A DNA stretch of 64,000 nucleotides from Candidatus Latescibacterota bacterium (GCA_965226795.1 CBDDDZ010000005.1:1152001-1216000), one strand, 5' to 3'. Counted from the first letter of the stretch, positions 29,705 through 42,177 are shown. Notes: generated by a model not told the origin, from the letters alone. Numbers and translations: made by a program.

Positions 29705-30166
29705 GGCGTACCCTCCTTATGGTTGTTTCATGTCTGAACGATTCGATTCCGTCCCGCGCCGTCAGGGGATAGTCGGCCGATTCTATCCGGCCCGAGGTGG
29801 CGGGGGCGGGTTAGTGCCGTAGATGCATAAGCATTAAGTCCTCCTTTAGTGATTGATAAGCTATCCTATATGACGACGCATCTGCGAGTGCGTTCCAGGA
29901 AAATGTTAAAAAAAACCGCCGCCATGAACATTCGAGTTCATCGTCTTGACAGGGATTTCACAAACACCTATGTTCCTGGTGAAGCGAAAGACATGGAATG
30001 GCGCCACGGCTGGAATGGCAGGCTGGAGGGGAAGTCCTTTAGGCGGGCGGACTCTACACCAGGGGTATGAAAAGGTTCAACATAAAGGATACATTATGGG
30101 CTTTTTCAACCCAACCCGTTGCGTGCGCGAGGTGTTGACCTGATATCGACTGGAGGGAAATCGACA

Positions 30167-31123
30167 ATGACGGAATCGTCAGCACTTGGACGTATCGAAC
30201 GGGCTGATCTTCGTGAGGCCTGGCCGCACGAGAGCGCGGATTTTACACCTTGGCTCGCGGACCATATTTCCGAACTTGGCGACGCTTTGGGGTTGGAATT
30301 AGAACTACAATCTCAGGAAACACCCGTCGGTGCTTTTTCATTGGATCTGTTGGCTCGTGTGTCGCAAACAAACCGCACGGTGATAATCGAAAACCAGCTG
30401 CAGCAGACCAATCATGACCACTTAGGAAAACTGCTCACTTACGCGGGCGGCTGCGATGCCCACGTGATAGTCTGGGTAGCAAAAGAATTCAGGGATGAAC
30501 ACCGGCAAGCGATCGACTGGTTGAACCAACGCACTGGCGAAGAGACTGAGTTCTATGCCGTCGTTGTTGAAGTATGGACGATTGACGGTTCTCGGCCCGC
30601 TCCCTACTTCAACCTGGTTGCCACTCCAAACGAGTGGCAACGCGAAGCCACTGAAACTATACGTCTGGGCAATACATCCGATAGGAACGTGCGGTATCAG
30701 TCGTTCTTCCAGAACCTTATAGACACACTCAGAGAACAAGGATTTACGAACGTCTTCAAGGCACAGCCTCAAGGTTGGTACAGCTTTTCAGCGGGATACG
30801 GCCATCGCGCTCAATATGGTGCCTGCTTCGGTCAAGGAGGAACGGTAAGGGTTGAGGTCTATATAGACTCGAACGATAAGGATTGGAACAAGACTCTGTT
30901 TGATCAGCTCATTGAAAGAAAAGTACTCATCGAATCCGAACTCGGAGGGTCTCTCGTTTGGGAGCGCCTGGACCATAGAAAAGCCAGCCGCGTCAGTTTA
31001 ACACGACAAGGTAGCATTGACGACGATGAGAAGGCGCTGGCAGAAATTAAAAACTGGATGCTTTCCAAACTCTTGGAATTTAAACGAGTATTTGGGCCGT
31101 ATCTGGATGAATTGGCAGGATAA
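30167..31123 (+). CDS. DUF4268 domain protein with an N-terminal PD-(D/E)xK-like nuclease domain
   Basis: WPHESADFTPWL, DLLA...IIENQL...HDHLGKLLTYA, LVWERL...KASRV. Confidence 0.85.
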   Translation: MTESSALGRIERADLREAWPHESADFTPWLADHISELGDALGLELELQSQETPVGAFSLDLLARVSQTNRTVIIENQLQQTNHDHLGKLLTYAGGCDAHVIVWVAKEFRDEHRQAIDWLNQRTGEETEFYAVVVEVWTIDGSRPAPYFNLVATPNEWQREATETIRLGNTSDRNVRYQSFFQNLIDTLREQGFTNVFKAQPQGWYSFSAGYGHRAQYGACFGQGGTVRVEVYIDSNDKDWNKTLFDQLIERKVLIESELGGSLVWERLDHRKASRVSLTRQGSIDDDEKALAEIKNWMLSKLLEFKRVFGPYLDELAG

Positions 31124-33510: not shown

Positions 33511-33541
33511 CTTGTATCTTCAGTCCGCAGACGGAGAGTGC

Positions 33542-34999
33542 ATGAGAGGATCCCGGCCGAACATCCTGTGGATTTGCACGGACCAGCAGCGCTACGATAC
33601 CATTGGCGCGCTGGGGAACCCCCACGTCAACACGCCCAATATCGATCGCCTCGTGGCCGAGGGATTCGCATTTACGCACGCGTACTGTCAGAGTCCGATC
33701 TGCACACCCAGCCGGGCGAGTTTTTTGACCGGACAATACGCGAGCGCCGTCCATGTGAATGGAAACGGCAATTCGCACTTCCCTGACACGCCTCCCCTGG
33801 TCACGAAGATGCTGGCTGACGGTGGCTACGATTGCGGATTGATTGGAAAGTTGCACCTGTCCAGCGCATTCGGGCGTGTCGAGGCGCGGGTTGATGACGG
33901 GTACCGGTACTGGCAATACAGCCACGCGCCCCGGGACGATTGGGAGACCGGGCACGACTACGCCGACTGGGTACGATCGAAGGGGGAGGTACTTGGCGAA
34001 TTAATCAACAGTCCCGATGGCGTGCCCGCGGAATTGCATCAGACCACATGGTGCTCGGAGAAAACCATCGAATTCCTGAGCGAAGCCCATGACGGCCCCT
34101 GGCTGGCCTCCGTGAATATCTACGACCCGCATCCTCCATTCAACCCGCCCAGGACGTACCGCGATCTGTTCGATCCGGAACAGGTGAACGGGCCGCTGTT
34201 CAGAGAAAGCGATCTGGCGCAGCAGGAGAAGCTGGAAGCCATCGACTTTCAATCCAAAGGGCGCCGTCCCGATGCCCTGGACATCAAGAGCCCCGTGATA
34301 CCCTGGACGCAGACCCACGGGTTGCGGGAGCCGGAGACAGCGGGAAAACAGGACGCCAAAACGCTGATCGCCGCGTATTATGCCATGATCAAATTGATCG
34401 ACGATCAACTCGGGCGGATCATTTCAGCGCTGGAAGACACCGGACAGCGCGACAATACACTCGTGATATTCACCAGCGATCATGGCGAAACATTGGGAGA
34501 CCATGGGCTGATTCAGAAGGGATGCCGTTTTTACGAAGGCCTGGTGCGGGTGCCGCTTATTTTTTCGTGGCCGGGTCGGGTAAATTTGGGGCAGAGGAGC
34601 GACGCGCTCGTCGAATTGCGCGACATCGCCCCGCTCCTTCTGGAATTGGCCGGGTTACCGGTTCCGGAGCGCATGCAGGCGTGTTCTTTGTTGCCCATGC
34701 TCGGCGGCGAGAAACCAGCGGACGAACATCGCGAATTCGTGCGCTGTGAATTTTACGACGCGCTGGACCAGGCCGACGGGACGTTTGCCACGATGTATCG
34801 CGACCGCCGGTACAAGCTTGTGGTCTATCACGGTCACGGCCTGGGCGAGCTTTACGACCTGGGCGAAGATCCGGGGGAGTTTGAGAATCTCTGGGACAGC
34901 GCCGATCACGCGGACTTGAAACTCGACCTGATGCAGCGCAGTTTCGATGCGTCCATGCTCGCCATGGACAGAGGACCGGAACGCATCGGACCGATGTGA
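33542..34999 (+). CDS. Sulfatase (formylglycine-dependent)
   Basis: RPNILWICTDQQR, CTPSRASFLTG, GKLH, PHPPF, FTSDHGE, ELYDLGEDPGE. Confidence 0.95.
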   Translation: MRGSRPNILWICTDQQRYDTIGALGNPHVNTPNIDRLVAEGFAFTHAYCQSPICTPSRASFLTGQYASAVHVNGNGNSHFPDTPPLVTKMLADGGYDCGLIGKLHLSSAFGRVEARVDDGYRYWQYSHAPRDDWETGHDYADWVRSKGEVLGELINSPDGVPAELHQTTWCSEKTIEFLSEAHDGPWLASVNIYDPHPPFNPPRTYRDLFDPEQVNGPLFRESDLAQQEKLEAIDFQSKGRRPDALDIKSPVIPWTQTHGLREPETAGKQDAKTLIAAYYAMIKLIDDQLGRIISALEDTGQRDNTLVIFTSDHGETLGDHGLIQKGCRFYEGLVRVPLIFSWPGRVNLGQRSDALVELRDIAPLLLELAGLPVPERMQACSLLPMLGGEKPADEHREFVRCEFYDALDQADGTFATMYRDRRYKLVVYHGHGLGELYDLGEDPGEFENLWDSADHADLKLDLMQRSFDASMLAMDRGPERIGPM

Positions 35000-35540
35000 G
35001 GGAGGGGAAGTTGGCGCTTGCTTAATGGACGTTCCGACGCAACCTCTTTTCGGCATTCAGTTGATCCTGTTATTATTTCGCCGGTTTTGTTACACTATAA
35101 ACGAGATGTCACAATCCTCGTGTTATTGCATCGTATCCAAATCTGCTCCTGCGCCAAAACCCGGCGGTGCAGGATTCGGCCTGACAATTGGATTACTACG
35201 TTCTTAGACACAGCTTATCGCTCAAGAATATGGTGACCTCTTAACCACACTACCGGAGACATTGTAAGTGTCTGCAACATCACTCGCGTTAAAGTTGCCA
35301 GCCAGGATTTGCGAAACCCGCGAACATCAAGCCGAGTTGCCTTTTACCGTTCGGTATTTGGACGTTAAGCCGTCCCGAAACGCATTGTCCGAGTATATTA
35401 TAGACATAAATTGTTAAATACAATGGATTAATGTCTGATATTGTGATTATCATAACACTAATTGCCGTCATCGAAATAACGAGGACTAGCGTCTGCTAAT
35501 CAGCAGAATCCGGCTGAATCAAAGCGGAGGAGCCCAGGTC

Positions 35541-36722
35541 GTGCAGAGAAACGGAACCAATGACGCGCCGGAGTTCTCAGAGGATGCGGCTGAGTTAAAG
35601 AAGCGAGTTATCCGATCTCTAAGAGCTCAGGGATTTCGCGTCAGGAACGGGTCGATACTACCTCCGCAGGGTCTTACGAAAGAGGGGATCCGTAAGCTTC
35701 ATGAAACGTCAATTAAGCACAAGATTGCACAAGCAAAAGGTGGTCTCATTCGCAGAGAACCAGATCTTCTAAACTATATTGCATCAGGAAATGAGATTTC
35801 TCCAACGAGAATCCGGCCGCGATTGGTAGAGGTGAAGTCGGGGTCGAAAGAGGAGCTTCTCTTTAGATATGCGAGCGTCCATTGGAGCATTCCTGTATCA
35901 TCAGGATACGGACGACGTTTAAGGTTTGTGGTTATCGATGAAGACAACGGCAAGCTTATGGGTTTGATCGGGCTGGGTGACCCCGTCTACAACTTGAGGC
36001 CGCGAGATGAATGGATTGGATGGACTGCGGCTGACCGGAGGGGGCGTCTAACTCACGTCATGGACGCATTCGTCCTTGGTGCCGTACCTCCCTACTCGTT
36101 TCTACTGTGCGGGAAACTTGTCGCAATGTTAGCAGTTGCGAGCACGGTTATTGATGCATTTAAGGAAAAATACGGTGGCGGGCGTTCGGTTATCCGGGAC
36201 AGACTGCATGATGGACGTCTCGCTATGCTCACTACAACATCAGCCCTCGGACGTTCATCCGTCTACAATCGGCTCCGATTCGACGATAGACTTCTCTATC
36301 GGAGCGTAGGCTTCACCAAGGGGTCGGGCGAGTTTCATTTCTCAAATGGTATCTATAGCGAAATAGCCAAGTTTGCTTCGGAACATTGTAAACCCACTGC
36401 AAAACAAAAACAGTGGGGAACTGGATTTCGCAATCGGCGGGAGATCATTAAGAAGTGCCTTCCCGCCCTCGGGCTGTCGAGCGAATGGCTTTACCATGGC
36501 ATTGAGCGGGAAGTTTTCGTCGTTCCACTAGCTAGCAATACTCGGGATTTTCTTCAGGGGAAACAGGATGATTTATTGTGTTATACTCAATCTGAAGACG
36601 AGATATTCGAATACTTCCGAGATCGATGGATGCTTCCACGCAATGCGTGGGATCGACGATTCATGTCGTGGTCCAAATGGGAATGGGCGATTTGGCTGAA
36701 TAGAAAAAATGTGCGTGACTGA
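35541..36722 (+). CDS. druA: Druantia DruA-like protein (DUF4338)
   Basis: WSIPVSSGYGRRLRF, GKLMGLIGLGDPVYNL..RDEWIGW, MDAFVLGAVPPY..LLCGKLVA, TTTSALGRSSVYNRL, GFTKGSGEFHF match DruA motifs as recalled. Confidence 0.85.
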   Translation: MQRNGTNDAPEFSEDAAELKKRVIRSLRAQGFRVRNGSILPPQGLTKEGIRKLHETSIKHKIAQAKGGLIRREPDLLNYIASGNEISPTRIRPRLVEVKSGSKEELLFRYASVHWSIPVSSGYGRRLRFVVIDEDNGKLMGLIGLGDPVYNLRPRDEWIGWTAADRRGRLTHVMDAFVLGAVPPYSFLLCGKLVAMLAVASTVIDAFKEKYGGGRSVIRDRLHDGRLAMLTTTSALGRSSVYNRLRFDDRLLYRSVGFTKGSGEFHFSNGIYSEIAKFASEHCKPTAKQKQWGTGFRNRREIIKKCLPALGLSSEWLYHGIEREVFVVPLASNTRDFLQGKQDDLLCYTQSEDEIFEYFRDRWMLPRNAWDRRFMSWSKWEWAIWLNRKNVRD

Positions 36723-36760
36723 CGCGCTGCCGACGATAAACGAAATATCGGAGCTTCCCC

Positions 36761-39289
36761 ATGGCAGATCGTATTCAACTTAGTGATGCGCAGCGCAGAT
36801 ATCTACTTGATCCACGATATCTACCCAATTCGATCTGTATAAACGATAAGACCTACACACCTGAGGAACCCATACATTCTGGGTACAAGGGGGTGATATG
36901 GCGTGTTAAAGACGAGTTCGGTCGTCTACGGGCGCTAAAGCTCTGCATTTACGCCGACTATCTAGATCGTTCCTATCTGCAAGAAATGACGAGAGCGTCC
37001 GCTCTCGAACCGTATCGCGAATTTGCGTCTTTTGTGGATGCTGGGCTTGTCGAGAAAAGTATTGGCCCCCTGGAGAAACAAAAGTATGTATGCTTCGTTG
37101 AAGAATGGATTGACGGGTTGACGCTCGAGAGCTTTGTTCGAAAGCAAGCCAGCGTCGTCACAGCATCCTTTATGCTCGCTTATGTAAAGGCTTTGTGTCA
37201 CGCCTTGCACGCGCTCCATGTAATTGGTTTAAGGCATGATGATCTACACGCAGGAAATGTAATGCTTGAACGACCTGCACCGGGCGACCTTGCTGATGAA
37301 TGGAAAGTAAGAGTCGTTGATACAGGTAGCATTAAGCCATTAGACTCGAAGCTAACAAAACAAAGGACCGACCATCAAAATTACGTCGGACACATCGTCC
37401 TTCTTTGGAACACGGTCAAGGCGCGTAAAGATACGACCATCCGGGATCGTCGTTTTCTAAAAGAGACAGAGCATCTACTTCGAACCATGCTGGATGATGA
37501 TCCAAGCATCGCACTAGTAGAACCTGCTCAAATCATCAGACAATTCGAGCTAGCGTATACTCGCACCTGTCTGTCGCCGTTGGATCAAGAAAGCAGACCG
37601 GAGCCAGGGGACCCATTCGAGTTCATTTCGGCGGAACATATCGCCGATGATCGATTACTCGTTCGGATGTTTGCTCGTTCCTGTCCCTTTTTGGAGAAGG
37701 TCGATGGTCCGGACCCATGCTTGGTCACAGGTCCGCGCGGTTGCGGCAAATCAACCATATTTCGGTGGTTAAGCCTTAAGGCACATTTGCACCAATCTGT
37801 TGAGGAAATCGAACCATTTCGTATCGCGGGGTTTTACGTTTCTTGCAGTAGCGATCTCCAAAATAGACTCGCGTGTATACAGACCGAGGCGTTAGCCAGG
37901 AAGTTCCAACGAGAGATCGTCCACTACTTCAACCTTCTACTAGCTCGTGAGGTCGTGCACACTCTCTCCCTAATCTCTGCTCGTGAAGACCACCAAAGCT
38001 ATTGGGGATTTGGAACGGAGCAAGGGGAAATTGTCGGCAATTTCATTCTCTCCGCGTTGAGTGCCACCACCCGTCCGCGCGTCCAAGGTGTTCCCCACTT
38101 GGTGCAAGTGTTGGAGGCCATCGAAGCGGAAATGTTTGCGACTCATCGCAAGATGCAGGATGGCGTTAACATTTCGTCGTTTTCGGGCAATTCCTTTCTG
38201 GGTGATTTGACGACTTTGCTGGCCAGGGAGGTACCGTATTTCAGTCGGAAACGCATAGCGTTTCTGGTGGATGACTTTTCCTCGCATCGTTTACCCGAGT
38301 TTGTACAGCGAGTAATAAACCAAGTAATCTGGGAGAGAAGACCATCCCATGTATTCAAGCTTTCCTCTGAAAAATTTGGTGCAATTCTTCTTGGCGGTCT
38401 CGACGCAACCGCGGAAGTTGGCAGGGAAATGATAGAAATCGATTGCGGAAGGGAATATGTTGCGTTAGACGACTCCAACCAGGTCTCGCGCACAAGGGTT
38501 TTTGCAATTGAACTGCTGGATAACCGGCTCAAGGCGGCGTCCTATAAGGGTACCTCGCGGACGTTGATTGGCCACTCCAAATGGCCGGAGGGCAGCCTAG
38601 GGCGAGCCCTTGCCGAGAAAAGCGAAGGGAGGTCGAACGATCAATATCATGGGATCGAATGCATCGCGGATCTGTGTTCTGGTGACGCTTCGACGCTTCT
38701 GTTTGTTTATCGAAGGATCTTTGATCGGGGCGGTGTAACACGGGATACAACGGCTTGCATTCCTAAGGCGGCACAGCATGGAGCCATCGTTAGTGCATCA
38801 AGGGAACTATTTGAAGCAATCAAACACCACTATCCGTTTGGTCCCGATATGTATACGATCGTTAATTCCTTTGGAAACCTTGTGCGAAATGTCCTTCAAA
38901 AGGGGAGGTGGCTGAAGAAGGGTAATAAGACTACACCGTCACAGGTACCGAGGATCGAACTAGATCAAAGAGAGGGTACTGTATCGGACAGTCTAAACGA
39001 AAACCAACAGAAACTCGCTGATGAGTTAGTTCGGCGAGCCATTTTTATAGAAATGGAGCCAGGTCTCTCACGGCACCAAAACTTGACGACACTACGCTGG
39101 CACATGCGCAGGGTTTATTTGCCGACATTTGGAGCGGCTTTGGCAAAAAACGACGCGATTAAGGGTCGTATTGATTGGTTCAAATATTTCCTTACCAATC
39201 CGCAGGAGGCTTGTTCTTTGATCTGGAATAAAAGGCCAAAACGGGTCGAGGAGCCCGAAGGATTGCCCCTATTTAATCAGCGGAAATGA
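36761..39289 (+). CDS. Protein kinase fused to a P-loop NTPase (STAND/ORC-CDC6-like)
   Basis: Kinase: SGYKGVIW, ALK, FVEEWIDG, HDDLHAGNVML, VVDTG. NTPase: Walker A GPRGCGKST, Walker B AFLVDD. Confidence 0.85.
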   Translation: MADRIQLSDAQRRYLLDPRYLPNSICINDKTYTPEEPIHSGYKGVIWRVKDEFGRLRALKLCIYADYLDRSYLQEMTRASALEPYREFASFVDAGLVEKSIGPLEKQKYVCFVEEWIDGLTLESFVRKQASVVTASFMLAYVKALCHALHALHVIGLRHDDLHAGNVMLERPAPGDLADEWKVRVVDTGSIKPLDSKLTKQRTDHQNYVGHIVLLWNTVKARKDTTIRDRRFLKETEHLLRTMLDDDPSIALVEPAQIIRQFELAYTRTCLSPLDQESRPEPGDPFEFISAEHIADDRLLVRMFARSCPFLEKVDGPDPCLVTGPRGCGKSTIFRWLSLKAHLHQSVEEIEPFRIAGFYVSCSSDLQNRLACIQTEALARKFQREIVHYFNLLLAREVVHTLSLISAREDHQSYWGFGTEQGEIVGNFILSALSATTRPRVQGVPHLVQVLEAIEAEMFATHRKMQDGVNISSFSGNSFLGDLTTLLAREVPYFSRKRIAFLVDDFSSHRLPEFVQRVINQVIWERRPSHVFKLSSEKFGAILLGGLDATAEVGREMIEIDCGREYVALDDSNQVSRTRVFAIELLDNRLKAASYKGTSRTLIGHSKWPEGSLGRALAEKSEGRSNDQYHGIECIADLCSGDASTLLFVYRRIFDRGGVTRDTTACIPKAAQHGAIVSASRELFEAIKHHYPFGPDMYTIVNSFGNLVRNVLQKGRWLKKGNKTTPSQVPRIELDQREGTVSDSLNENQQKLADELVRRAIFIEMEPGLSRHQNLTTLRWHMRRVYLPTFGAALAKNDAIKGRIDWFKYFLTNPQEACSLIWNKRPKRVEEPEGLPLFNQRK

Positions 39290-39337
39290 CATCGTTCTCT
39301 ATTCTTCGTGATGAGCAGTGGCTAATATGGGACTGCA

Positions 39338-40444
39338 ATGCCAAAGATCGTTAGGTGTGAGTTAACAGATAAAATTAACAACCTGAGTTCGATTAGTCGT
39401 TTGGAGCGGGATGAATTGGGAACTGCGTATCCCGATGATCTCTTTCTCTGCGCACTAGGTTTCGAGCCCCGGTGCTTGACGCTACCCTCGCGGCTGAATG
39501 ATGCCGGATATCAAACTACGAGGGCCTACTACTTCAAATACAGCACAAACTTAGAGGACAATGCAGTTAACCTTTCTGAGTTGGAACGGTGCTTATTAAG
39601 GATTGCACCAATCGCTGAGCCAATAGAAGCCGACACGTTGGACCTTCCCACAAAGCTCAGTTCACTGCTCGATCTGGCATTGGGCGATTCGGAGACAAGG
39701 CCGCTTAGGGTAACAATGGATATTAGTGTGGCCGCCAATCGACTCTTGCTCCGGTGTCTTAGGGTTCTATTGAGATATGATATACGTTTACGAGTCATTT
39801 ATTCCGAGGCAGCTGTCTACCACCCCACCAGAGAAGAGTATGAGAGAAACGCCGCCCAGTGGGAAAAAGCAGGATTACTTGGCTTAGAACGAGGTGTTAG
39901 CGATGTGATGCCAAGCATTGATCATCCGGGTGACGATTTGGACCCGCAGCCAGATTCTCTAATTCTCTTTCCAAGCTTTAAGGCTGACAGAAGCAAGGCC
40001 GTTATCAGTTCAGTTGACCCCTCACTATTGCAAAATCCCGGCGATAAGGTTATATGGCTGCCCGGTGTTCCTCATGTTGACAAAGACCGATGGCGTCTCG
40101 AAGCAATGAAGAGAATCAATGGTATTGGCGAGGGCACCCGCCACTTTGAGATAAGCACCTTCGACTACAAGCAGACATTGCAGTGCCTAGAGGGTCTACA
40201 TGCTGAATTGTCAGAGAAACGACGGATCACGGTATCCCCATTGGGGTCAAAAATGCAGGCACTTGGAACAGCGCTGTTCTGTTATATGCATCCGGACATA
40301 CGCGTTATTTTGTCAACTCCGATAGAGTATAACGCTACGCAGTATTCGGAGGGCTGCAAGGAGATATGGAAGATTGACTTCGGGCCTCTTAGGGAGCTAC
40401 GTGAGTGTTTGGACCAAGTGGGAACGCTTCAGATTGTCGATTGA
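39338..40444 (+). CDS. Hypothetical protein, possibly tandem CARF-like/Rossmann domains
   Basis: Third gene of the operon; LCALGFEPR, TMDISVAAN, YSEAAVY, TVSPLGSKMQALG. Confidence 0.7.
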   Translation: MPKIVRCELTDKINNLSSISRLERDELGTAYPDDLFLCALGFEPRCLTLPSRLNDAGYQTTRAYYFKYSTNLEDNAVNLSELERCLLRIAPIAEPIEADTLDLPTKLSSLLDLALGDSETRPLRVTMDISVAANRLLLRCLRVLLRYDIRLRVIYSEAAVYHPTREEYERNAAQWEKAGLLGLERGVSDVMPSIDHPGDDLDPQPDSLILFPSFKADRSKAVISSVDPSLLQNPGDKVIWLPGVPHVDKDRWRLEAMKRINGIGEGTRHFEISTFDYKQTLQCLEGLHAELSEKRRITVSPLGSKMQALGTALFCYMHPDIRVILSTPIEYNATQYSEGCKEIWKIDFGPLRELRECLDQVGTLQIVD

Positions 40445-40920
40445 ATCTCTCATTAAGGAAAGAACCAACTATTGCTTAACATCTTATACCTCTGCGCTAT
40501 AACGAAACGTGCGAATGGACAGAAGTCCCGTCTACAACAGTCAGGATTACCCAAATGGTAAAAAACAAAGGTACACAGCTTGCTACTGCCGATAGAGAGC
40601 GATAATTGTGGCTGCCTTACTTATTGGGATTCCTACCCTCGCTTCAAGATCGCCATCAGCCATCCATGAATTTCCTTTTCCGAATTGGTTAGGTTCGGGT
40701 GGCACCTCCGTCAATGGAGCCGCACCAACAGTAGAAGGCCCCCTAATAATTGATTAAGCATATGCGAAAAACCTTCCGGGATATCCTGCACGTGCAATCG
40801 TGGTCGCGCATTCGATCCACTGAAAAATTGAGGTGGAAATTCGGTTATTGGTGGCACTAACTCTGAACACGCATTGGCACTAATTTGAGGTCGACCTCGC
40901 ACCAGAACTGCGAATAGCCC

Positions 40921-42177
40921 TCACTCCCCCGTGTACCCCCGCGATGCCCAGACTTTTTTGGCCAGCTCTTTTGCGTCGTCTGACGGTTCGATTTCGCCAA
41001 GAATGCTGCTGGGCGGCTGTCCGTCCTTTTTGCGGGCGGGATCGGGCGACCAGTCGTCGTCTTCGTATCTTTTGCGCACCGATTCGTCGCGGAAGTCGGG
41101 CACTTCCATGGTGGCCGAGTCGTTCAGCGCGGAACGCCACGCCTGGATGCCGGCGATGCTCATGTCCAGGCCGCGATATACATCGAGATAGGGTGGCTCT
41201 CCGTTACGGATCGCCTCGGCAAAGTGGTAGGTGGTGAAAAAGTCGCCGCCGCCGTGTCCGGTGCGGGTTGCCCGGTTATGGTGGATGGGGAAGTCGGGGT
41301 TGTAGACCGTTTCGACCGGCTCGCCCCTGCGTTTTTCCCACGGTTCGTACCAGACGCGCAGCCGCTGTTTGTCGCCGTGACGGCAGTTCTCCATCACCCC
41401 CTTGTTGCCGTGGATGCGGACGTAGTTTCCGTGACCGCGCAGTCCGCCGTGCAGTGACTTCATCACCGCGTCGTTGTCCATCCGGCAGATGATCACCGCG
41501 GCGGTGTCCGAACGCCTCATGTGCAGCGTCTGGGCGGGGTCGGTGAAATCAAAGGGGATGACAAAGCCGTTCACCCTCGTGGGTCTGGTGTCTGTGATGT
41601 ACATCACCGGGGCGATGGAATGGGTGCAGTAGTACGTGGCGGGGATCCAGTTGCGCCAGTGGTCTCGGCCGCAACTTCGCGCCAGTTTCACCTCGGGCGG
41701 GTCCGGGTGGACGTATTCGCCCTCGCCGTATTTGAACTCACCCACGCGACCCTTCCGGTAGAGCCGCTTCATCTCCTGGTTAAAGACCATGTAGGGGTAA
41801 TTCTCGGCGAACATGTAGATCTTTCCGCTTTTTTCGACAGCCCTCGCCAGGGCCACGCCTTCGCCCAGCGTGTGGCAGGCCGAGGTCTCGCTCATCACGT
41901 GCTTTCCGGCGTTGAGCGCTTTTATGGCAAGCGGGGCGTGCTGGTGAAAATAGTTGGCCAGCACCACCGCGTCCATGTCGCAGCCGAGAAATTCGTCGTA
42001 ATCGACGCAGGTCCGTACATTCAGCGTCTCGCCTTCCGCGATCAGCCGCTCTTCCCAGGTGTCGCAGATGGCAACCAGTTCCATGCCGGTCGCTCCTGCC
42101 GCCCGCGTAAAGGACCGGCCTCGGCCGACGCCGACCACGCCGACCCGGATTCGCTGTTTGCCGCGCTTACTCGCCAT
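40921..42177 (-). CDS. Gfo/Idh/MocA family oxidoreductase
   Basis: VGVVGVGRG, GKHVMSE, FAENYPY, YGEGEYVH, YCTHS, GHGGGD. Confidence 0.9.
   Translation of the reverse strand: MASKRGKQRIRVGVVGVGRGRSFTRAAGATGMELVAICDTWEERLIAEGETLNVRTCVDYDEFLGCDMDAVVLANYFHQHAPLAIKALNAGKHVMSETSACHTLGEGVALARAVEKSGKIYMFAENYPYMVFNQEMKRLYRKGRVGEFKYGEGEYVHPDPPEVKLARSCGRDHWRNWIPATYYCTHSIAPVMYITDTRPTRVNGFVIPFDFTDPAQTLHMRRSDTAAVIICRMDNDAVMKSLHGGLRGHGNYVRIHGNKGVMENCRHGDKQRLRVWYEPWEKRRGEPVETVYNPDFPIHHNRATRTGHGGGDFFTTYHFAEAIRNGEPPYLDVYRGLDMSIAGIQAWRSALNDSATMEVPDFRDESVRKRYEDDDWSPDPARKKDGQPPSSILGEIEPSDDAKELAKKVWASRGYTGE

Follow-up and report, generated by a model that had tools for sequence, protein, structure and literature searches.

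We describe a three-gene cassette of a Candidatus Latescibacterota bacterium (GCA_965226795.1), carried on a 64,000-nucleotide stretch of its DNA (CBDDDZ010000005.1:1152001-1216000; the whole of this stretch is hereafter the window, and positions are counted from its first letter). The cassette comprises a druA gene (gene 1), a gene for a protein kinase fused to an ATPase (gene 2, 36761-39289) and a gene for a CARF protein (gene 3), all intact open reading frames (ORFs) on the plus strand with intergenic gaps of 38 and 48 nt (Table 1). Recomputed coordinates and strands agree with the layout in a preliminary description, made by a model from this DNA, which had proposed a candidate defence system. 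The trio is a real, widespread cassette and a variant of a computationally known core, with an activity that is predicted.

The three genes make up the entire gene content of an insert of about 49% GC inside a 58% GC genome, so that the AT-richer island claimed in that description is borne out by the GC check. The trio genes themselves have a GC of 0.492 vs. 0.583 for the genome, a value reached by only 0.8% of 1082 genome segments of 5 kb each. The flanks are convergent, since the sulfatase gene lies on the plus strand and the oxidoreductase gene on the minus strand, and they correspond to the housekeeping-type neighbors noted previously.

Table 1. Features of the cassette and its flanks (window positions)
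Feature	Positions	Strand	Basis
Sulfatase; conserved left flank, outside the system	33512..34999	+	Pfam PF00884; matched in 14/14 same-genus genomes
Low-GC insert, GC 0.487	35001..40920		GC profile; variable defence hotspot
druA (DUF4338), 393 aa; predicted GNAT-fold enzyme, putative self-DNA modifier	35541..36722	+	Pfam PF14236
Gene 2, N-terminal Ser/Thr/Tyr protein kinase domain, residues ~1-270; predicted effector	36761..37570	+	Pfam kinase matches
Gene 2, ORC/CDC6-type AAA+ ATPase part	37571..39289	+	PF24389, 122 bits; PADLOC CARF6--CARF_STK_AAA, 74 bits
Gene 3, CARF protein of 368 aa with two CARF domains in tandem, in which no effector domain was seen; predicted sensor of a nucleotide	39338..40444	+	PADLOC CARF6
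Gfo/Idh/MocA oxidoreductase; conserved right flank, outside the system	40921..42177	-	Pfam PF01408; matched in 14/14 same-genus genomes

Domain composition of the three proteins

Gene 1 encodes a full-length DruA, matching the Pfam family (394 bits, 296 of 297 positions covered) and the PADLOC DruA1 model (399 bits) and showing 39.7% identity to the DruA of a complete P. putida Druantia I locus, which confirms its earlier assignment to DUF4338. It is the single druA copy of the source genome. A full-length DruA is what the cassette has in common with Druantia type I, whereas DruB, C, D and E were not found in this genome. The DUF1998 profile (PF09369) matched nowhere in the genome, which is 95.9% complete (the control of this search matched in 8/14), tblastn with DruB, C, D and E of one P. 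putida set gave no match in the genome at an E-value of 1e-4, a search that very divergent copies could escape, and DruB, DruC and DruD are absent among the ORFs of the insert. The lack of DruE and DruBCD, first noted for the window, thus extends to the genome within the reach of these searches. Among five other genomes with the trio, three have DUF1998 matches on other contigs or far from the trio, which are not typed as DruE and are uninformative.

The fold of DruA is weakly suggested by modeling to be that of a GNAT. The structure model has a pLDDT of 65 and its VIA rows are nearly all GNAT-fold, with Z at most 4.4 (weak); the Atlas GNAT-phage-like score is 0.81, and Foldseek with this model returned nothing at an E-value of 0.001. 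Neither the DruA profile nor the CARF profile gave anything useful against the sequences of the PDB. The GNAT assignment agrees with PMC10853773, in which DUF4338 is termed a GNAT and appears among fused co-effectors read as acting on proteins. The Mom protein of phage Mu is a GNAT that modifies adenine in DNA, visibly to single-molecule real-time (SMRT) sequencing (PMC13219725). One DruA homologue matches the adenine-modifying Mom family of Pfam weakly (E-value 7e-4, under the cut-off), while the window's own DruA gives no Mom match in the Pfam scan.

The product of gene 2 (842 aa) joins a kinase domain to an ORC-CDC6-like ATPase, in line with the previously proposed fusion of a kinase to a P-loop NTPase, for which the Pfam kinase and PF24389 matches and the intact motifs now speak. 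The Pkinase match has an E-value of 1.5e-6, below the curated cut-off, and similarity of the kinase to PglW reaches an E-value of 0.0015 at best. Kinase residues K60, E75, H159, D161, N166 and D187 are invariant in 47 of 47 distinct full-length homologues, as are the Walker A motif GPRGCGK (324-330, with an arginine within the P-loop) and the Walker B residues D504-D505, and both the kinase and the ATPase are predicted to be active because of this invariance. The HDD motif had been named earlier as the place for a kinase-dead mutation of its aspartate; the invariant residue is its second aspartate, D161, while D160 varies (37/47). There is no cysteine pair ahead of the kinase at the N-terminus. 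In L009, L086 and L165 the kinase and ATPase occupy separate overlapping ORFs, which may reflect a frameshift, a sequencing error or a natural split.

Gene 3 matched no Pfam family. It scores 66 bits against the PADLOC model CARF6--CARF_CARF_CARF, and its AF2 model (pLDDT 91.9) aligns best among the VIA rows to the tandem-CARF nuclease 6sce (Z 13.9, root-mean-square deviation 3.6, 237 residues aligned), followed by Card1 (Z 11.0), Csm6 (10.7) and Can2 (10.5). The CARF6 match and the 6sce alignment together uphold the CARF-like label that gene 3 had been given. The VIA rows span residues 26-355 of 368 and include no winged helix-turn-helix (wHTH). In Foldseek with the CARF model, unrelated folds ranked top by E-value, and the highest TM-score was that of 6sce, 0.42. 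There is no cyclase in the insert or among the recurring neighbor clusters scanned, which sets the trio apart from CBASS and type III CRISPR signaling with their linked cyclic-oligonucleotide synthase; since no cyclase is linked, the ligand of the CARF protein needs another source. No Cas10 was found in the genome with the Cmr2 model. Two CBASS-like loci (L203 and L204; G000:C5:663778-664197 and G000:C4:329768-330196) lie elsewhere in it, one with SMODS, HORMA and AAA ATPase genes and the other with SMODS and a 4TM effector; the cyclase frame beside the 4TM effector has only 165 aa and may be broken.

The insertion site is a defence hotspot

Both flanks are conserved throughout the 14 same-genus genomes, where they lie approximately 1-34 kb apart, and among 30 relatives the trio itself is found in one (G011, 72% DNA identity). 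Of the 85 ORFs in the same-genus inserts (L176-L192), 48 were scanned, a set that leaves out the large ORFs of G006, G012, G002 and G013. PADLOC defence matches occur in the inserts of five genomes: PsyrTA in G014, G005 and G010, the last also with Hma and a Ppl-like protein; PsyrA, DRT3, type III restriction-modification and Pycsar in G001; and DRT3 with an HEC-06-like protein in G011. The small inserts of G008, G003, G007, G009 and G004 had no PADLOC defence match. The sulfatase-oxidoreductase junction is a defence hotspot. Several ORFs in its inserts that have no PADLOC match are candidate defence genes. As to how inserts reach the site, integration directed by a tRNA gene was rejected, as there is no tRNA gene in the window, and so were flanking direct repeats, as no boundary repeat was found.

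The trio recurs as a mobile cassette

A metagenome scan with the gene-3 alignment gave 125 confirmed stretches, the best 80 of which were kept (76 non-redundant). druA is present in 42 of these 76 loci, and among the other 34 most are cut off before its presence can be judged; where a locus includes the kinase domain and 1300 nt or more of upstream sequence, druA lies within 5 kb in 32 of 32. Its placement over the 42 loci takes four forms: upstream on the same strand (27), downstream on the opposite strand (6), upstream on the opposite strand (5) and downstream on the same strand (4). Where a locus has room for both, gene 2 comes before gene 3 (59 of 62 loci), the exceptions being L125, L142 and L153. 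The trio-linked DruA proteins range from 83% down to 20% identity to that of the window, and distances among DruA and gene 2 proteins are correlated (Spearman 0.68). The trio recurs across phyla as a mobile cassette. Among genome contigs, a single-protein query found nothing while the alignment query found relatives; viral contigs held no relative. A narrow gene-3 profile matched 1 of 401 genomes, and a broad one 4, 4, 8 and 10 of 386 genomes in four samples (centres included; the first sample overlaps that of the narrow profile).

The patchy distribution, 1 in 30 relatives, would suit any mobile cargo, and the cassette might then serve no defence role, or druA might be a passenger from a neighboring system. 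We consider this very improbable, given the 32/32 linkage in four arrangements, the known defence systems at the same site in relatives and the retention of catalytic or invariant residues in all three proteins.

NurA or HerA genes stand beside the kinase-CARF pair in six metagenome loci. Three large versions of the cassette (L131, L134 and L140) encode druA, the kinase-ATPase, CARF, nurA and herA, plus ASCH, HAD or YunG genes, and also a protein that matches no Pfam family and has a hydrophobic C-terminus (cluster c5, 16 loci).

Gene exchange at the DruA and kinase positions

The four samples searched with the broad profile yielded 23 new distant loci, of which 52 selected neighbors were scanned. 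In 15 of the 23 a DNA methyltransferase lies in the same gene run (N4/N6, D12, C5 and HhH-GPD-C5 types; the L249 match lies below the Pfam cut-off), in 3 a gene resembling pyrimidine-nucleoside phosphorylase, and in 1 DruA. The remaining 4 have none of these partner genes: L255 and L256 are at contig ends, L250 is decayed and L234 is intact. Methyltransferases are likewise found in L165, L202 and L205. None of the 47 DruA trio loci, 22 of which extend 1200 nt or more to either side, has a methyltransferase match within 1.5 kb, and in 5 of the 47 such a match lies 1.6-5.8 kb away. The kinase position is also exchanged, being taken in relatives by TIR, PRTase-CE, HD-CE or phosphoesterase domains, and in L205, L239, L242 and L243 the ATPase and CARF parts are fused.

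A CARF tree built from 54 selected rows places 33 of the DruA-linked proteins on one branch (support 100), and 3 partner changes suffice for it; 2 further DruA-linked proteins stand beside phosphorylase-linked ones. Long branches leave the deep order of this tree unsure. DruA thus trades with methyltransferases, and the kinase with effectors of other types, so that, as judged from gene content, the effector role probably falls to the kinase and the modifier role to DruA. It might instead be proposed that DruA acts as a further toxin that acylates proteins or tRNA and is checked or triggered by the kinase-ATPase-CARF module. The GNAT fold would allow for this, DUF4338 is a fused co-effector in PMC10853773, and the correlated divergence of DruA and gene 2 points the same way. 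This seems improbable since DruA swaps with methyltransferases while the kinase swaps with effectors, and since near-identical DruA proteins with different partners (see below) fit a dedicated toxin-regulator interface poorly.

The phosphorylase-like genes (L239:1429-2652, L242:3709-4923 and L243:9072-10286), which are divergent members of their kind, lie directly upstream of a gene for a fused kinase-ATPase-CARF protein of approximately 1230 aa; the one in L239 was tested (E-value 5e-17), and the other two are 40-43% identical to it. A thyX gene, for flavin thymidylate synthase, occurs in or beside both the DruA and the methyltransferase versions of the cassette (L047:9207-10028, L090:4578-5396, L092, L133, L165:9845-10768, L240, L245, L250 and L252).

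NurA-HerA and DruE as other partners of DruA

A genome scan with the DruA alignment gave 89 confirmed stretches, of which 80 were analyzed; its two peptide patterns favor the clade of the window's DruA and under-sample classical Druantia. Within this clade, 60 of the 80 loci pair a NurA-like gene with a HerA gene, 4 carry NurA or HerA alone, 7 have the kinase-ATPase and CARF genes, and 9 have neither by the thresholds used, among them L084 with a divergent pair, L079 with a second NurA-HerA type and L050 with a DruE homologue (32% identity over 1811 residues). The loci span Acidobacteria, Chloroflexi, Firmicutes, Actinobacteria, Planctomycetes, Proteobacteria and Thermoplasmata. In a FastTree phylogeny of 114 DruA proteins the partner types are interleaved, with 20 changes, of which strong branches force at least 7, vs. 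35 with shuffled labels.

The three-gene druA-nurA-herA cassette (L006-L082, e.g., L014:7959-12030 and L015:853-4930) is apparently commoner than the trio studied here. A literature search returned no description of DruA with either the kinase-ATPase-CARF module or NurA-HerA; supplementary lists, which lay outside this search, may hold such neighborhoods. In L050 (2246-9158) and in L194, a Meiothermus plasmid, where no druBCD was seen, druA directly follows the gene of a large helicase, and the two are possibly a two-gene DruE-DruA form.

These partnerships bear on a restriction-modification logic like that of BREX type 2 (Pgl), by which DruA would mark self, the ORC/CDC6 ATPase would load on unmarked DNA of an invader and fire the kinase, and the CARF protein would be a secondary regulator. 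Pairing of the DruA clade with the NurA nuclease and HerA translocase (60/80) and with DruE (L050) is consistent with it, self-protection being the simplest role for DruA there, as are the six loci that combine NurA or HerA with the kinase-CARF pair. BREX type 2 also unites in one locus a kinase (PglW), ORC/Cdc6-clade ATPases and a DNA modifier, a methylase, although PglZ, PglX and the helicase are absent here (no Pfam or PADLOC match) and the BREX core, in the parts of its description used here, includes no tandem CARF. We regard this logic as unlikely, if the least unlikely of the alternatives that we considered, as the cassette is without a nuclease or PglZ and its CARF protein looks central, because ATPase and CARF stay together (59/62) and are fused in the four loci given above.

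Comparison with known systems

The family closest to genes 2 and 3 was noted computationally by Makarova et al. in 2014 (PMC4012209) as a small set of proteins that fuse a Zn ribbon, a kinase, an AAA+ ATPase whose P-loop includes an arginine, a CARF domain and a wHTH. The order of kinase, P-loop-arginine AAA+ and CARF is the same in the trio and in PADLOC CARF6, and by domain order and profile matches this family is present here in split form, as genes 2 and 3. As described, it differs in being a single fused protein with an N-terminal Zn ribbon, whereas the trio has two ORFs 48 nt apart without N-terminal cysteine pairs, and has a druA partner, of which the parts of PMC4012209 used here make no mention for the family. 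With the family of genes 2 and 3 on record already, the core cannot count as new. The preliminary description did not recognize the combination as a described system, and within the literature searched this stands for the DruA pairing and fails for genes 2 and 3.

The same ATPase and tandem CARF core is found in the ORC-CDC6-like systems (PF24389, PF24390, PF24391 and PF24408), which carry methyltransferases where the trio has DruA, and PRTase-CE, HD-CE, TIR or calcineurin-type effectors where it has the kinase. These four families are said to come from Nicastro et al. in 2023.

In Metis and PUA-Cal-HAD, m6dAMP released by host DNA degradation triggers defence (10.1101/2025.11.05.686725; 10.64898/2026.01.15.699771), and the Metis authors predict, in the same sources, a type III that carries a methylase of its own. 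The logic proposed below for the trio would resemble theirs in having modified host DNA, a modified mononucleotide as signal and its own modifier gene in the operon. The sensor is PUA-like in Metis vs. a tandem CARF here (no PUA or ASCH Pfam match in the trio proteins); the effectors, as far as these sources describe them, are NAD diphosphatase, membrane protein or dNTP-depleting enzymes vs. a kinase behind an ORC/CDC6 ATPase here, and the modifier is a methylase in type III Metis vs. a predicted GNAT here. The Metis preprint nowhere uses the term CARF. Judged by its components, the cassette belongs to none of Druantia, Metis and BREX.

A self-marking alarm as the proposed mechanism

The reading that we favor, at a probability of roughly 0.45, is that the trio is a self-marking anti-phage alarm with predicted activity, in which DruA provides the mark, the CARF protein the sensor, the ATPase the switch and the kinase the effector. 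DruA would chemically mark a base in the host DNA, and phage-driven breakdown of the chromosome would free the marked mononucleotide. Its binding by the tandem CARF protein would cause the ATPase to oligomerize, and the kinase thus activated would halt the infected cell. This preserves much of the signaling-type module with DruA proposed in the preliminary description, as the trio recurs, lacks DruE, lies at a hotspot and combines an intact kinase with an ATPase and a CARF sensor. It departs from it in that DruA is more than a fourth component of the signaling chain, because DruA takes the methyltransferase position of distant relatives and its clade pairs more often with NurA-HerA. A role of DruA as DNA modifier is common to the alarm and to the restriction-like logic.

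In favor of the alarm are the druA linkage (32/32), the trading of DruA with methyltransferases and of the kinase with other effector types, the lack of a linked cyclase, the precedents of Metis and PUA-Cal-HAD, the m6A-type signal of Druantia I together with the weak Mom match of a DruA homologue, the clustering of partner types on the CARF tree and the hotspot. Several observations weigh against the alarm. The solved CARF proteins matching gene 3 are CRISPR-associated, several with bound cyclic oligoadenylates, and a mononucleotide is described for none of the listed CARF structure entries; the two CBASS-like loci elsewhere in the genome could supply a ligand. The 60 DruA-NurA-HerA loci have no CARF sensor, so the product of DruA is not used solely as an alarm. 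Clustering on the CARF tree does not single out the modifier, because effector type also tracks that tree. Thymidine metabolism is indicated by the three slots that hold a phosphorylase-like gene and by the recurrence of thyX. The assignment of the window's DruA as a GNAT is itself weak on the model scores given above, and other GNATs acylate proteins and tRNA.

It could accordingly be imagined that CARF senses a change in the nucleotide pool (thymidine-related or phage-made) or an unlinked cyclic oligonucleotide, with an accessory enzyme tuning the pool. For the pool there are thyX genes in 5 of the 76 metagenome loci, in L047 and L165 and in 4 of the 23 distant loci, the 3 phosphorylase-like genes, and the ASCH and HAD genes near some loci, and for a signal in trans the two SMODS loci of the bacterium's own genome. 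That the window's cassette has no thyX, that its genome has no match to the thyX profile and no Cas10 (Cmr2 model), and that the commonest partners, DNA methyltransferases, act on DNA rather than on the pool make this more improbable still than DruA as a second toxin.

The self-marking alarm has a broader version, which we offer tentatively and hold to be doubtful. DruA would be an unrecognized family of base modifiers that serves as a plug-in of Druantia I, NurA-HerA and this cassette, and the ORC/CDC6-CARF core would have evolved independently as another sensor of the destruction of the host genome, with CARF domains that read a modified mononucleotide set by whichever modifier gene the system carries. 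Druantia I in E. coli has an m6A-type SMRT signal without a recognized methylase gene (10.1101/2024.04.14.589459), and because DruA exchanges with methyltransferases we name it as the candidate for that signal. If true, this would mean a new DNA modification plus a new class of CARF ligand. One small operon makes both the function of DruA and the ligand of cyclase-free CARF proteins testable, and the family supplies matched modifier-sensor sets for the CARF ligand question.

Outside the insert, 4.4 kb upstream of the trio and on a kilobase of slightly lower GC, the window carries a gene for a DUF4268 protein (30119-31123, plus strand) that matches the PADLOC candidate PDC-S11 with 367 bits.

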